Positions 32,086 through 37,381 of a stretch of 64,000 nt of DNA are shown one piece after another. Under the pieces are notes generated by a model, which searched no databases, was not told the origin of the DNA, and was given only the letters and a program-made list of their open reading frames with translations. Made by a program: the position numbers and the translations under genes. Numbering within the stretch: position 1 is the stretch's first letter; every line of letters begins with the position of its first letter. Origin of the DNA: an uncultured Verrucomicrobiales bacterium (GTDB taxonomy: Bacteria; Verrucomicrobiota; Verrucomicrobiia; Verrucomicrobiales; Akkermansiaceae). The stretch spans positions 29,879 to 93,878 of the forward strand of contig CAWVVN010000001.1 of NCBI GenBank assembly GCA_963933605.1, in the 5' to 3' direction.

Positions 32086-32451
32086 TTACTCAGGCCTGAG
32101 CTTTCTCTCCAGTTGCTTGGGAGAAATACCGAAGAACTTTTTAACGTCGGTGCAAAAATGGCTGTAATAGAGATAGCCAAGTTTTTCACTAATGTCATGA
32201 AGGTTAGTTCCTTCACTGATCATGCGTTTTGCAAGCAAGGCGCGGTGATTACAAAAAAGATCTTTGGGCTTCAGACCCACTGCAGACTCAACGTGACGTT
32301 GTAACTGAATCACTGTGAAGCCAAGTATCTCAGCTACCCTCTTGACGTTGAAGTTGTTTTGTTCTGCGAGCTGGAGAAGATTGACACCCGACTTGTCTAA
32401 AATTCTTGCACCTTGCCGGTGAAATGGTGTTGGTGTTGCTGGTCTGCTCAT
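32086..32451 (-). CDS. Stand-alone AraC-type helix-turn-helix protein (121 aa, no sensor domain)
   Basis: Two HTH units; C-terminal LHDISEKLGYLYYSHFCTDVKKFFGISPKQ matches the AraC signature. Confidence 0.8.
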   Translation of the reverse strand: MSRPATPTPFHRQGARILDKSGVNLLQLAEQNNFNVKRVAEILGFTVIQLQRHVESAVGLKPKDLFCNHRALLAKRMISEGTNLHDISEKLGYLYYSHFCTDVKKFFGISPKQLERKLRPE

Positions 32452-32676
32452 GACTTATGTGAAGTTGTTACGGAAAAAGCGCTTAACTTACAAGAAATAT
32501 TAGCTGAAAAATGTAACATCTGCACTGTTTTTTTGTGATTATCTCAAATTTTCTTTAAAAACAAGAGCGCTGCCCCTATAAAAAAGAACTTAAGTGCTCA
32601 CGTTACCACCCAATGAGGGGGGGCTTTTGTGATTAAAGGGGGCCATACTACCATTTGATTTTTATTTGTAATATAC

Positions 32677-34116
32677 ATGTCAGAGACCAGTTCAATCCCC
32701 AGTGCGAATAGCATCAAGTGCGAGAACAGCCAAGGGCATGCTCTGAGAGCGAACATACTTAGTATGCGTCGCTACACGATTTCATTTGAGATCTACAATC
32801 CGTTTTGTAGTTTGCAGCTCTCTGAAGTTCTCAGGAATTTCTGCATTAAAATGAATGGGCAGCTCGTCTATATGGGGGAGGCTGTTGTATCCAGTATCGT
32901 CAATACTGGTGCAGTCTTGGTATGCGAGGCGACATTGGGAAATGGTTGGAGAGAAGTTGATTTCCTGGCCAGTGCTCAGCACGGAGGACTTGTCTCCCAG
33001 TTTGATGAATTCGTCGATGATTGGAAAAGAGCGCACCACGTCTCTGCTGATTTTAAACTGAATGTCGCTGACATGCAGAATATGATGATTGGACTAAAGC
33101 GGTGGCTTGAGAAGATTGATTTGGGTATTCAAGCGATGGATACCACCGATAAAAATGCGGTCGAACGTCGGGTTATTCATGAGATTGAAGGGCGGATGAT
33201 GGAGGAGCTTAATCCTCAAATGGCAAACTTCGAGGCATCAACTCGCAATGTTCATTTGATAGATCAGCCCGCCCACAAGCTTTATGTGAGACGTCAAATG
33301 CACCCGCTGATGCTTTGTTCGCCCTTTGCTTACCGGGCCTATACAAAGCCGCTCGGATATGCTGGTGACTATGAGGTCGTCAACATGATGATGCGCGATC
33401 CCTATGAAGGGGACTCATTGTTTGCCAAGGTGATCAATAGAGTGTTTTTGAGTTTCGAACCCGTGCTAGCACATAGGAATCGTATCGACTATCTCTACGA
33501 TACCATTAAATCGGAGGCAACAAGAGTTGTCGGTGAGGGCCGCAGGCTAAAAGTGCTCAACCTTGGCTGTGGATCTGCGCATGAGGTGCAGCGTTTTTTT
33601 CAAAATGAGGAGATTAGTGACCATTGTGATTTCACCTTATTGGATTTCAACAAAGAAACGACAGACTACGCAGATAATATCCTTTCTGATATCAAAAATA
33701 AAAATGGCAGAAGTGGTCAGATTAAAGTAATGCAACGCTCGGTGCATCAACTCCTTAAGCAGGCAAACCGTGGTGATGTTGACATGGAATGGGAATCATA
33801 TGATTTGGTGTATTGTGCCGGCCTGTTTGATTATCTCTCCCAAAAAGTATGTCAAAAACTAGTAGAGCTTTTCGCCAAGTTGTTGCGCCCGCAGGGGCTC
33901 GTTATCGTTACCAATGTGGCATCCACCAATCCGTGCATAGGCTGGATGGAGTATGTCGTGGAGTGGAATCTGGTTTACCGCAGCGACTGGGAAATGCTCG
34001 ACTTGATTCCTTTGGATGGCACTGTTATGAAAACAGACCTCAAGAGGGACGCTACCGGCGTGAATTTATTTCTAGAGATTCGCAAAGTGTCCATGAATCC
34101 ATTTATCAGCCCCTGA
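32677..34116 (+). CDS. Class I SAM-dependent methyltransferase, PhcB-like (3-hydroxy fatty acid methyl ester signal synthase-like)
   Basis: SAM motif VLNLGCGSAHE and YDLVYCAGLFDYL. RAYTKPLGYAGDYEVVNMM...AHRNRIDYL resembles the PhcB-like family as I recall it. Confidence 0.7.
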   Translation: MSETSSIPSANSIKCENSQGHALRANILSMRRYTISFEIYNPFCSLQLSEVLRNFCIKMNGQLVYMGEAVVSSIVNTGAVLVCEATLGNGWREVDFLASAQHGGLVSQFDEFVDDWKRAHHVSADFKLNVADMQNMMIGLKRWLEKIDLGIQAMDTTDKNAVERRVIHEIEGRMMEELNPQMANFEASTRNVHLIDQPAHKLYVRRQMHPLMLCSPFAYRAYTKPLGYAGDYEVVNMMMRDPYEGDSLFAKVINRVFLSFEPVLAHRNRIDYLYDTIKSEATRVVGEGRRLKVLNLGCGSAHEVQRFFQNEEISDHCDFTLLDFNKETTDYADNILSDIKNKNGRSGQIKVMQRSVHQLLKQANRGDVDMEWESYDLVYCAGLFDYLSQKVCQKLVELFAKLLRPQGLVIVTNVASTNPCIGWMEYVVEWNLVYRSDWEMLDLIPLDGTVMKTDLKRDATGVNLFLEIRKVSMNPFISP

Positions 34117-34138
34117 GCTTCATCAAACCAACATCATA

Positions 34139-35521
34139 ATGAATGAATCTGATCATACAATAAGGGAGCTTTTTAAGATTTCAGAGGAGCGCGAAAGAAA
34201 AGTCAACTGCCAGCAGGCGGCTATTTTTGGCGCCATATTCATGATGGTTGGAGTGTGCTTGGACATGGTGGTCTATCCAGAGCTGCTGCAACAACTGCTT
34301 GTTAACCGTGTGGTCACGACTGCTCTATTGCTGACTTTTGCTGTTTTGTGTGGGTTCATTAAAAATAACGCACTCATGAGGTTGGTAGCTCATATGATTG
34401 CGATGATACCCATTGTGTCTATCGCCCTCATGATCTTTCAAACCGATGGAGTAGAGTCCCACTATTATGGAGGTTTAAATTTAGTGCTGGTGGGGGCGAC
34501 GTTGCTGCTGCGCTGGAACACTTTTGATAGTGCCGTCAATGTCTTGTTATGCCTCTTAATGTATACAGTGGCGGTTTATAGGCACTCAATCACTATAGAA
34601 TGGGAGGAGCCATTTATTCGCACTTATTTTATTTTTGTCACGGGAGCTATCGCAACGACGGCAACCTACTTTTACAATATTAGTAGATTTCGCGAGTTTT
34701 GTCTTTCCAAGGAAGTGGCAGCTTCAAACAAAAAGCTAAGGCACATCAACCGGCAACTGGCTGAGAACAATACAGAGTTAGAGAGCGCCAACAATAAACT
34801 CAAAGAGCAAGGCAGCTTGCTTGTTCAGAGCGAAAAGCTCTCATCGCTTGGCCGTATGAGCGCAGGCATTGTGCATGAAGTTAACAACCCGCTTAATTAC
34901 AGTAAGATAGCGATCCATACTTTAAAATCATTCAAGTCGTCGATCAGTGAGGAAGAGAGGGATGATTACCTGGAGGTAATTTCTGATGCCGAAGAGGGGC
35001 TTGTCCGTGTGATTGGCATCATCACCGACTTGCGCTCATTCACTCGGGGAGATACAGCAGCCATGGATTATATCAATGTGGCAGCCTTTGTAGAAAGTGC
35101 TCGTAAACTGTCGAGCTCGACGCTCGTTGATATTGAAGTAGATATCGATATTGACCCTGCGCTCGAAATTGAGGGCAACGAGCGGCAACTATGCCAACTC
35201 TTGATCAATTTCTTCCAGAATGCGGTAAGGGCCATTGAGGTCAAGGAGGCTAAATTGGGACCGTTCCAAGGCAAGCTCAGCTTGAATGCGGAATCTAGCG
35301 TGGGTGGAGTTAGCCTCATCATGCGAGATAATGGCTGCGGCATCTCAGCGGAAGATATCGATCGAATATTCGAGCCGTTTTTCACTAAAAATGATGTCGG
35401 CGAAGGAATGGGGCTGGGCCTGAGTATTTGCCACCGTATTCTTGATCAGCACAGGGCTAAAATCGATGTTGAATCTGTGGTAAATGAATTCACCGAATTT
35501 AAGATACGTTTTAGGAGCTGA
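34139..35521 (+). CDS. Multi-TM sensor histidine kinase (PhcS-like position and architecture)
   Basis: About 6 N-terminal TMs; H-box GIVHEVNNPL, N-box INFFQNA, DNGCGI, FEPFFTK and GMGLGLSI. Confidence 0.9.
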   Translation: MNESDHTIRELFKISEERERKVNCQQAAIFGAIFMMVGVCLDMVVYPELLQQLLVNRVVTTALLLTFAVLCGFIKNNALMRLVAHMIAMIPIVSIALMIFQTDGVESHYYGGLNLVLVGATLLLRWNTFDSAVNVLLCLLMYTVAVYRHSITIEWEEPFIRTYFIFVTGAIATTATYFYNISRFREFCLSKEVAASNKKLRHINRQLAENNTELESANNKLKEQGSLLVQSEKLSSLGRMSAGIVHEVNNPLNYSKIAIHTLKSFKSSISEEERDDYLEVISDAEEGLVRVIGIITDLRSFTRGDTAAMDYINVAAFVESARKLSSSTLVDIEVDIDIDPALEIEGNERQLCQLLINFFQNAVRAIEVKEAKLGPFQGKLSLNAESSVGGVSLIMRDNGCGISAEDIDRIFEPFFTKNDVGEGMGLGLSICHRILDQHRAKIDVESVVNEFTEFKIRFRS

Positions 35522-35619
35522 GACTGGAGCCGCCGCTATTCTGATTAAATGCAAATCGATTGCTAAAAGGCTTGGTTTTCAAGATAATATGTAATACAAA
35601 AAGCGCGCTCAAGCAGTTT

Positions 35620-36804
35620 ATGGATAATTCAAATCAAGAAAAAATTGTTCTCTTTGTTGATGACGAGGAGAAAACTCGCAAGTATTTCTGCCGTTTATTT
35701 GGCGATAAGTTTAATATACTAGTAGCCAACGATGGCATGCAAGGCTTGGAGGTATTTAACGAAAATATCGACAACATTGCAGTGGTGGTTACCGACCAAC
35801 GCATGCCCAACATGACAGGTTCTCAGTTGCTTGAAAAAGTAAGTGATCTCAAGCCATCATGCATTCGTATACTATCAACAGCATACGCAGATATTGATAC
35901 TGCTATCGAGGCCGTCAACAAAGGAGGCCTGTATCAGTACATTACCAAACCTTGGGAAATCAATGATCTAGAGGCGGCAATTGTCCGCGCTATCGATCTC
36001 TATGGCATTCAGCAGGAGCGTGATGCGTTATTGCGTCAAAAATTATCCAGCGTTGAAATGTTGGCTTCCTCTGACCGTGTTTTGTCAATTGCCACGATGG
36101 CAGTCTTTCGTCATGAAGAGTTGAGTCACGTAGGAGAAGCTCTCAGGGCTCTTGTCGAACTTGCCGAAATTGGAGCAAAGGATGACGTCAAGGAAGTTGG
36201 GATTGACCCAAGCATTAACTGGAGGGAACTCTATCGTAGGCACCTACTATTCTTACGTACTGTACGTGAAGGGCTCACCGACGACAGGTTATGCGGACAA
36301 TCACTTGATTACGGCCAGAGTGTGCCTGTAGCGGACGTGGTTGCTCCCATTACTGAAGAATTAGGTTGTTTCCAGTGGATCGGCGAAGAGAAATCTGATG
36401 TAGGCTGGCCTGGATCTACGGAGTCAATGCAAGCAGAGGTGAGGCCTTTCCTTAAGGCAATTACTAGTGTTATGCGTGATGCAGGTGTGATCCTCATTTC
36501 TCAGACCCAGGGCGGGGTTGAATTCAGTCTTTCATCACGCCTGTTGGCTAAAAATCTCGAGCCTTTACGCACGGCTACAAAAGAGGCTCCTTCTGATGCT
36601 AGTATCGCGCTTTGTGCTGCCTTTTTCCGCATGGCTCATGCAGGTGCCATGTTTGAGGTAGTGCCCGAAGCTAATCGTGAAATGATACGTTTGAGGGTCT
36701 TGTTTGATCTCACCAAGCGCGTTGAAGCTACCGAGAGCGGCTGGGACTCATTAGTTGTGGCACTGACAGGCAATGATATTTTCTGGTCGCGCTACGGGGC
36801 TTGA
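35620..36804 (+). CDS. Response regulator with atypical (degenerate kinase-like) C-terminal output domain, PhcR-like
   Basis: Receiver motifs LFVDDEE, VVTDQRMPNMTG, LSTAYAD and ITKPW. The C-terminal half has no HTH and no intact HATPase G-boxes. Start moved to ATG 35620. Confidence 0.82.
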   Translation: MDNSNQEKIVLFVDDEEKTRKYFCRLFGDKFNILVANDGMQGLEVFNENIDNIAVVVTDQRMPNMTGSQLLEKVSDLKPSCIRILSTAYADIDTAIEAVNKGGLYQYITKPWEINDLEAAIVRAIDLYGIQQERDALLRQKLSSVEMLASSDRVLSIATMAVFRHEELSHVGEALRALVELAEIGAKDDVKEVGIDPSINWRELYRRHLLFLRTVREGLTDDRLCGQSLDYGQSVPVADVVAPITEELGCFQWIGEEKSDVGWPGSTESMQAEVRPFLKAITSVMRDAGVILISQTQGGVEFSLSSRLLAKNLEPLRTATKEAPSDASIALCAAFFRMAHAGAMFEVVPEANREMIRLRVLFDLTKRVEATESGWDSLVVALTGNDIFWSRYGA

Positions 36805-36838
36805 GCCTAGCCGACGTTGTTAGCATTAAATGCTGGGT

Positions 36839-36888
36839 ATTCCGGGGCATTCCTAGCTATTCCTAGGTATTCCTAGGTATTGCCAGCT
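36839..36888. repeat. Five imperfect 10-bp tandem repeats (ATTCCGGGGC ATTCCTAGCT ATTCCTAGGT ATTCCTAGGT ATTGCCAGCT)
   Basis: Read directly from intergenic sequence after the response regulator. Confidence 0.75.
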
Positions 36889-37026
36889 GTCATATTATCG
36901 CTTATTCGCGATTTTGGGTGCCTAGAAAGGCCACTCGCTCGGTCGCATAGCTTGTCCTTTGTGTGTGCTCCTTGGGGGCCACTAGCGCTTAAACTAGTGC
37001 TTATGTGCGCTCTATGATCGGTGATC

Positions 37027-37248
37027 TTAGAAGCCTCCGTGGCCATATGCCTGACTACCTCTGCCTTGCTGAGGGCCAACACTGTCACCTGCTTTTCTCA
37101 ATTCTGATGCTGAGAGAATATCCTGATCCATTTGTCGCTGGAGCTCAGGGTCTGGTGCGCAAGAGCATAACGATAATATAGTGGCTGAGAGGGCTGTAAA
37201 AAAGAGGGTCTTGATTAAGGATTCATTTGAGCGGGTAGTGATTTTCAT
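37027..37248 (-). CDS. Small putative lipoprotein (73 aa)
   Basis: MKITTR...LFFTALSATILSLCSC lipobox, then a short polar domain. The longer ORF call overlaps malQ, so the start is moved to ATG 37248. Confidence 0.55.
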   Translation of the reverse strand: MKITTRSNESLIKTLFFTALSATILSLCSCAPDPELQRQMDQDILSASELRKAGDSVGPQQGRGSQAYGHGGF

Positions 37249-37381
37249 AACAAGTTGCATTATGCTACTTGGGTCGGCCAATTTCAAGCCACTAATTTTT
37301 CGGCGAGCGGGGTCATAAGGTGCTTTAGATGATGCCTCTTTAGGGTTGCCTAAATGAGTCACACGTATCATATCCCCTGAT

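Follow-up and report, generated by a model that had tools for sequence, protein, structure and literature searches.

A trimmed PhcB-PhcS-PhcQ-type gene cassette in marine Akkermansiaceae as a candidate signaling system

We analyzed a stretch of DNA of 64,000 nucleotides (hereafter, the window) on contig CAWVVN010000001.1 of the metagenome-assembled genome (MAG) GCA_963933605.1, which comes from an uncultured member of the Akkermansiaceae (Verrucomicrobiales) and comprises 2.14 Mb at a completeness of 92.5%. The subject of this study is a cassette of three genes in the window that encode an S-adenosylmethionine (SAM)-dependent methyltransferase (MT), a histidine kinase (HK) and a response regulator (RR) and that are related to the phc genes of Ralstonia. 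A preliminary description of this DNA had placed three co-oriented genes of these classes at 32677-36804, and the three open reading frames were all found there, intact and in the same orientation. A divergent AraC-type gene, which is absent from that description, belongs to the unit as well. The genes are as follows.

32086..32451, minus strand: stand-alone AraC-type DNA-binding protein, candidate output regulator, 121 amino acids, with two helix-turn-helix motifs, no ligand domain and a size like that of MarA/SoxS (Pfam HTH_18, 2e-14)
32677..34116, plus strand: PhcB-family SAM-dependent methyltransferase (MT), candidate signal synthase, 479 amino acids
34139-35521, plus strand: PhcS-type histidine kinase (HK), 460 amino acids, intact reading frame
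35620..36804, plus strand: PhcQ-orthologous response regulator (RR), 394 amino acids, with a receiver (REC) domain, a long helix and a degenerate kinase-like domain

The longest reading frame of the RR is 35560-36804 and opens at an in-frame TTG at 35560. Because the orthologues in related genomes have 394-396 amino acids, we placed the start at the ATG at 35620, and the upstream TTG is probably not used. The block of MT, HK and RR is flanked by mazG and malQ, and Pfam agrees with these earlier assignments. The impression that the block is AT-rich was borne out by the numbers. That is, the G+C content (GC) from the AraC-like gene to the RR is 0.454, compared with 0.511 for the genome as a whole, and a GC that low occurs in 0.5% of the genome windows of equal size.

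As the reference from Ralstonia we used the chromosome of R. pickettii (L072), in which phcB, phcS, phcR and phcQ, in this order, encode proteins of 463, about 450, 377 and 333 amino acids. In Ralstonia, PhcB makes the methyl esters of 3-hydroxymyristic and 3-hydroxypalmitic acid (3-OH MAME and 3-OH PAME), as described in two papers (PMC9197120, PMC7694676). In BLASTP, residues 13-467 of the MT aligned with residues 11-459 of PhcB at 37% identity (E 1e-112). When the whole genome containing the window was compared with the Ralstonia genome, the MT and PhcB were reciprocal best matches, each being the single match of the other. The homology runs from end to end, that is, it covers an N-terminal region of about 280 amino acids outside the methyltransferase domain as well as the Rossmann domain; the matches to the Pfam class I methyltransferase domains (Methyltransf_31/12/25) are confined to residues 291-419. 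The motifs from which the methyltransferase had been recognized, KPLGYAGDY, AHRNRIDYL, LGCGS and YCAGLFDYL, are all present in the MT. Throughout the family, most residues of these motifs vary little or not at all, and the motifs, including those of the N-terminal domain, are strongly conserved across phyla. In an alignment of 12 family members the mean column identity was 58%, and the residues N295, G297, C298, G299, D323 and D385 were invariant. At residue 300 the window protein has Ser (GCGSA), and 11 of the 12 aligned members have Pro (GCGPA). The parts of the MT are as follows.

32707..32937, plus strand: N-terminal six-stranded beta-barrel, residues 11-87 (AlphaFold, pLDDT about 80)
32989..33534, plus strand: helical bundle or lid, residues 105-286, bearing the invariant KPLGYAGDY and AHRNRI (alignment and AlphaFold)
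33547..34086, plus strand: Rossmann SAM-binding domain, residues 291-470 (Pfam Methyltransf_31/12/25)

The barrel region is conserved with PhcB (NSQG...E.YNPYS..Q.SEVL). A PilZ identity of the barrel was considered and rejected; residues 1-112 match no Pfam family even at E=10. The AlphaFold model of the whole MT has a pLDDT of 84, and its Foldseek neighbors were an uncharacterized Bordetella methyltransferase (3ocj), C-methyltransferases of polyketide synthases (PKS) and small-molecule O-methyltransferases. That is, the fold is nearest to small-molecule and PKS methyltransferases, not to those acting on proteins or nucleic acids. These neighbors of the model would fit a small-molecule substrate, without pointing to a particular one. 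A search of the PDB sequences with the MT profile returned generic methyltransferase matches only.

The HK was related to PhcS in the same manner. The two proteins share 30% identity (E 2e-58) over a range that includes the membrane part, and they are reciprocal best matches between the two genomes. Among the kinases of Ralstonia, PhcS alone matches the membrane domain of the HK (residues 28-200), and when the transmembrane domains by themselves were aligned with those of betaproteobacterial PhcS, hhalign gave a probability of 100% (E 6e-40, 188 columns). The kinase had been described as having about six transmembrane segments and no periplasmic domain; in agreement with this, six hydrophobic segments with short loops lie within residues 26-179, and a periplasmic domain is absent. 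Pfam recognized HisKA and HATPase_c in the HK, with MASE8 sub-threshold at 1e-4. The features of the HK are as follows.

34139..34723, plus strand: membrane sensor domain, residues 1-195, six transmembrane helices, MASE8-like (hydropathy; profile match to PhcS)
34751..34756, plus strand: deletion junction R205|Q206, placed by alignment with the long-form kinases of loci L090, L094 and L108
34754..35521, plus strand: HEVNNP-type core (DHp and CA, with intact H, N, G1 and G2 boxes), the same core type as in PhcS

The RR has a REC domain in Pfam, and its C-terminal part has no Pfam match. In BLASTP the RR aligned with PhcQ over the REC domain and linker (37% identity, E 7e-35) and with PhcR over the REC domain alone (34% identity, E 2e-25). 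A search of the whole Ralstonia genome placed phcQ first (2e-29) and phcR second (5e-22), and the RR and PhcQ were the best match of each other in both genomes. In a tree of receiver domains, the regulators of the window type from all phyla group with PhcQ (support 0.91), and PhcR forms the sister group; this tree and the MT tree described below were built with FastTree from modest samples with midpoint or forced rooting. The residues D14, D15, D59, T87 and K110, which are the phospho-acceptor residues, are invariant.

The C-terminal domain of the RR is a different matter.

36112..36801, plus strand: C-terminal pseudokinase domain, residues about 165-394, with a DHp/CA-like fold, no conserved His and no G1 box

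These 230 residues aligned with the HisKA/HATPase part of PhcR in hhalign (probability 94%, E 1e-7). The AlphaFold model of the full-length RR has a pLDDT of 80, and its best Foldseek match was Leptospira LvrB (PDB 8vc9), which has the same domain order, REC-DHp-CA. However, LvrB keeps its HisKA/HATPase core, whereas the RR has neither the conserved His nor the G1 box. In the family alignment, distant verrucomicrobial relatives retain the H-box His, a DNGxGLP G1 box and FDPF, whereas in the regulators of the window clade the G1 segment is lost and the His is not conserved. The alignments and the model thus indicate that the RR is a PhcQ-orthologous receiver fused to a predicted pseudokinase. 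The proposal that the third protein is a receiver with a C-terminal domain that does not bind DNA therefore stood, the domain being a degenerate kinase-like fold.

The likening of the locus to phcB-phcS-phcR was right in part. In the reciprocal-best-match comparison with Ralstonia, which had been set beforehand, all three proteins paired with Phc proteins: the MT with PhcB, the HK with PhcS and the third protein with PhcQ instead of PhcR. The RR does not have the combination that defines PhcR, namely, a PhcR-orthologous receiver followed by an intact HisKA/HATPase. The order is nevertheless like that in Ralstonia, that is, the methyltransferase comes first, the membrane kinase next and the receiver protein after it, and the output part of the regulator does not bind DNA in either system. 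We also observed that the Paraburkholderia loci (L001-L034, e.g., L016:9766-10170) have phcB, phcS and phcQ together with a truncated phcR that encodes a receiver only (about 134 amino acids, no kinase domain), and that L026 and L053 seem to lack phcR altogether.

In the HK of the window, the HEVNNP core is attached directly to the sensor domain, as it is in PhcS. In nearly all other complete verrucomicrobial loci, the kinase is longer (867-1117 amino acids) and contains, in order, a membrane domain, a classical HisKA-HATPase core, a receiver and an HEVNNP-type core. We aligned the HK with the 868-amino-acid kinase of Oceaniferula spumae. The HK aligns with the membrane domain of that kinase, its core is 64% identical to the second core, and everything between the membrane domain and the second core is missing. 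That is, about 420 residues of the long form (the first DHp-CA core, a linker and a REC domain) are gone at the junction R205|Q206, which joins two signaling helices in frame. Because all of the clade's short forms (including L086 and L091) share exactly this junction, the alignment indicates one ancestral in-frame deletion of about 420 residues in that clade. By the same comparison, the direct attachment of the sensor to the HEVNNP core is a secondary state in the window lineage, derived by internal deletion from a double-kinase ancestor. The idea that the long kinase is a simple fusion of PhcS and PhcR was not supported; the core of PhcS matches the second core, not the first. A short PhcS-like kinase of 456 amino acids also occurs independently in a verrucomicrobial MAG outside the window clade (L182:7526-8896), and the inner core and receiver seem to have been lost more than once.

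The long form is the common one. Most cassettes in Verrucomicrobiota, Planctomycetota, Gammaproteobacteria and Acidobacteriota consist of an MT, a double kinase of 870-1100 amino acids and a REC protein, and in the loci that we inspected a MASE8 double kinase and then a receiver protein of about 395-440 amino acids come after the MT. The cassettes of O. spumae, Prosthecobacter, Planctomycetota, Endothiovibrio and Sulfopaludibacter share with the window the same MT, the MASE8-like sensor, the HEVNNP core and a REC-kinase or REC-pseudokinase regulator. They differ from it by the extra DHp-CA core and receiver between the sensor and the HEVNNP core and, often, by a gene for FadL, both of which the window clade has lost; moreover, in distant members of the long form, the kinase-like domain of the regulator still has its G1 box and His. 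A gene for a FadL/TodX outer-membrane channel adjoins the cassette in about half of the verrucomicrobial loci (e.g., L094:11365-12537) and in six of the six loci fetched with the query P0130 (L182-L187). In the window clade FadL is not adjacent, and none was detected in the window or in its 92.5%-complete genome at E 1e-3. The 577 nucleotides between the RR and malQ (36805-37381), which correspond to the position of FadL in O. spumae, contain no convincing gene, and no FadL remnant was detected there. On this comparison of architectures, we regard the window locus as a trimmed derivative of the longer common cassette.

To describe the spread of the family, the MT profile was compared with 1.84 billion proteins. 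The matches comprised 1,353 representatives (50%-identity clusters) at E <= 1e-30, the best 150 of which were mostly full length, and at least 593 species-representative genomes contain a relative of the MT. Named members occur in Planctomycetota, Gammaproteobacteria (Endothiovibrio diazotrophicus), Hydrogenophaga, Acidobacteriota (Sulfopaludibacter) and Dongiaceae. The linkage of MT, kinase and REC protein is kept in Verrucomicrobiota, Planctomycetota, Gammaproteobacteria, Acidobacteriota and Alphaproteobacteria, and judged by homology and gene order the cassette is widespread, occurring in at least five phyla. The MT tree shows the Phc clade of Betaproteobacteria as a small, compact tip and gives the verrucomicrobial clade a deep branch of its own. 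The automated annotation of JGI already labels many such proteins as 3-hydroxypalmitic acid methyl ester biosynthesis protein. The preliminary description had presented the locus as a candidate Phc system outside Betaproteobacteria. Its homology to Phc holds, but it is not an isolated case, this copy is trimmed, and it has no PhcA.

The loci closest to the window are those of Akkermansiaceae and Oceaniferula MAGs, with an MT identity of 96-98%, in keeping with the earlier assignment of the organism to Verrucomicrobiales; the MT of O. spumae NT6N is 71% identical. The order mazG, AraC-like gene, MT, HK, RR, malQ is held down to an MT identity of 77%. Measured against a relative at a dS of about 0.2-0.3, dN/dS was 0.04 for the MT, 0.12 for the kinase, 0.056 for the regulator, about 0-0.01 for the AraC-like gene and 0.085 for the flanking mazG. 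All of the genes are thus under strong purifying selection. As far as these comparisons of sequences indicate, the locus is functional and long resident in the lineage despite its low GC. Within the phylum the PhcB family is patchy (7 of the 301 sampled genomes).

The AraC-like gene accompanies the cassette throughout the Akkermansiaceae, where the long form has this neighbor as well. In all Oceaniferula-like and Roseibacillus loci it is found upstream of the MT in divergent orientation; in Haloferula/Luteolibacter loci it is found downstream. Its product is the most conserved of the unit, at 98% amino-acid identity in a comparison that gives 80% for the MT. With its double helix-turn-helix and no ligand or dimerization domain, it resembles MarA/SoxS. 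Orthology to MarA/SoxS was not found, and the best NCBIfam matches were weak and far below the cut-offs. The usual point of control of stand-alone AraC regulators of the MarA/SoxS type is their abundance or stability. The intergenic region between this gene and the MT has a GC of 0.35 and contains the following element, its sole well-conserved stretch.

32521..32561, strand unassigned: AT-rich conserved element, candidate promoter/operator (tgcactgtttttttgtgattatctcaaattttctttaaaaa), from conservation across 6-8 related loci

A scan for promoters and terminators gave counts no higher than the shuffled expectation.

Taking homology, architecture, synteny and purifying selection together, we think that the cassette is a functional, trimmed member of the Phc-type family of synthase-receptor signaling systems, and we put the probability of this reading at about 0.6. 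For the substrate, the diffusible signal, the phosphotransfer and the link to the AraC-like protein, we infer the following course. The MT would use SAM to methylate a hydrophobic carboxylate, most likely a 3-hydroxy fatty acid from the lipid A or fatty-acid pool, and the product would be a membrane-permeant methyl ester that builds up as the cells become dense or confined. The PhcS-type kinase would sense this ester within the membrane by its six-helix, MASE8-like domain, and its HEVNNP-type core would then phosphorylate the PhcQ-type receiver protein. The RR has no DNA-binding or enzymatic output, and its pseudokinase domain would most likely work through protein-protein contact. The best candidate for its target is the co-conserved, divergent AraC-type regulator, in parallel to PhcQ of Ralstonia, which binds PhcA and shields it from degradation (PMC13320629). 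By this analogy, the receiver-pseudokinase protein may control the AraC-like protein through direct contact.

Several points weigh against this reading or set the window locus apart from Phc of Ralstonia. No orthologue of PhcA (LysR type) was found in the 92.5%-complete genome, since the only LysR-type protein, i.e., the single LysR_substrate match, is an IlvY equivalent (7.9e-70). The window cassette also has no PhcR gene, and a mini AraC-type regulator is its conserved neighbor. The C-terminus of the RR, being a pseudokinase, is unrelated in sequence to that of PhcQ, and homology between the two was rejected (hhalign probability 3%). The window clade has no detectable FadL and has lost one kinase core and one receiver, which makes its wiring unlike that of the common form, and the short kinase, which looks like PhcS, is secondary in origin. 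In addition, the identities to the Ralstonia proteins are 30-37% in an organism of another phylum and a marine habitat; 37% identity between MT and PhcB leaves the substrate unfixed, and the signal chemistry and phenotype of the members outside Betaproteobacteria are predicted from homology. Finally, the link to the AraC-like protein is drawn from adjacency that is conserved within the Akkermansiaceae only.

Among the alternatives, the one that survives best, though we consider it unlikely, is that the cassette senses and processes hydrophobic compounds. That is, the kinase would detect free fatty acids, either exogenous or derived from the membrane, and the MT would esterify them for detoxification or membrane homeostasis, with no population signal. 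FadL-type channels are best known for fatty-acid uptake, and their frequent adjacency to the cassette would suit an import of fatty acids via FadL in the common form. A membrane-embedded sensor without a periplasmic domain would also suit lipid sensing, and the MT, lying in the operon of its sensor, could be an output rather than an input. However, the window clade retains MT, kinase and REC protein under strong selection without FadL, and the genes are ordered as in phcBSRQ, beginning with the MT and without any apparent separate regulated promoter. Moreover, in the sole studied system the homologue of the MT produces the very signal to which the homologue of the kinase responds (PMC9197120, PMC7694676, PMC13320629).

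Less probable again is Phc-type signaling by a molecule other than a 3-hydroxy fatty acid methyl ester, for instance one with another chain length or functional group, or an O-, N- or C-methylated metabolite that is not a fatty acid. The deep separation of the verrucomicrobial clade from the betaproteobacterial clade in the MT tree, the MT identity of only 36-37% and the presence of natural-product C- and O-methyltransferases among the structural neighbors all speak for such a difference. On the other hand, the motifs most likely to form the substrate pocket (KPLGYAGDY, AHRNRI, CAGLFDYLS, TNVxxxNP and TGVN) are invariant between the clades, and the association with FadL points to a fatty-acid-like molecule.

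A protein substrate of the MT is very improbable; in this explanation the enzyme could, for example, be a CheR-like adaptation methylase acting on the kinase or regulator, and no diffusible molecule would be made. The close coupling of the MT to a two-component pair and a weak Pfam match to the CheR SAM domain (4.7e-4) speak for it, but this match is sub-threshold and covers 40 residues of generic SAM fold. The full-length orthology to PhcB and the small-molecule methyltransferases among the fold neighbors argue against this explanation, and the kinase and regulator have no methyl-accepting domain.

The least probable explanation is a decaying remnant or recent foreign island, non-functional or newly acquired from Betaproteobacteria, which would suit the place of the block among the 0.5% most AT-rich genome windows, the 420-residue deletion in the kinase, the loss of FadL, kinase core and receiver, and the occurrence in 7 of 301 genomes, but which is countered by intact frames with retained catalytic motifs, by dN/dS values of 0.04-0.12 (called equal to or below that of mazG) and by the MT tree and the conserved synteny with relatives, on which a recent transfer from Betaproteobacteria was rejected.

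We return to the preferred reading, Phc-type signaling by a trimmed cassette, and to its place among known systems. The arrangement also resembles CqsA/CqsS of Vibrio and LqsA/LqsS of Legionella, in which a synthase gene lies beside a polytopic kinase without a periplasmic domain and the signal is hydrophobic, self-made and lipid-like. The likeness is one of general logic; CqsA and LqsA are pyridoxal phosphate-dependent acyl-CoA transferases, whereas the MT is a SAM methyltransferase. In full-text searches of the literature, we found Phc homologues discussed for Ralstonia, Cupriavidus and Paraburkholderia only, and nothing that ties phcB to Verrucomicrobia, Planctomycetes or metagenomes. Phc signaling is treated as peculiar to the Ralstonia solanacearum complex and a few Burkholderiaceae, and a 2026 review still regards it as an unusual system of the Ralstonia complex.

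The synthase, receptor and receiver are found together, as one unit, in Verrucomicrobiota, Planctomycetota, Acidobacteriota and several classes of proteobacteria, in which, to our knowledge, almost no dedicated cell-to-cell signaling system is known. As a tentative extension, which we hold to be rather less likely than its converse, PhcB-type methyl-ester signaling may be an ancient, cross-phylum cell-to-cell system of which Phc of Ralstonia is a late, rewired offshoot. In marine Akkermansiaceae it might then have become a minimal three-protein circuit, in which the phosphorylated REC-pseudokinase protein controls the mini AraC regulator by binding or stabilization. If this is true, the circuit would be the first of the quorum-sensing kind to be defined in Verrucomicrobiota. 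The window cassette is the smallest natural form, with one kinase core, no FadL and no PhcR, and it is therefore a convenient minimal system for reconstitution. Furthermore, O. spumae NT6N is cultured, has a complete genome and carries the long form; thus, fatty-acid methyl ester signaling in marine Verrucomicrobia is directly testable.

Some minor observations were made on other members of the family. The MTs of L182 (a Verrucomicrobiota MAG), L183 and L184 (Sulfopaludibacter, Acidobacteriota) are 69-71% identical, and these loci share the flanking FadL; this likeness suggests either transfer of the whole cassette across phyla or mis-binning. The cassettes of L101 (a 'Candidatus Omnitrophota' MAG) and L135 (an 'uncultured Bacteroidetes' MAG) nest among verrucomicrobial ones at 47-51% identity, and the phylum labels of these two MAGs may be wrong. 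In one verrucomicrobial genome, an otherwise full-length PhcB-family gene (G250:C35:9896-11281) contains a TAG stop, which could reflect a pseudogene, a sequencing error or a recoding event.

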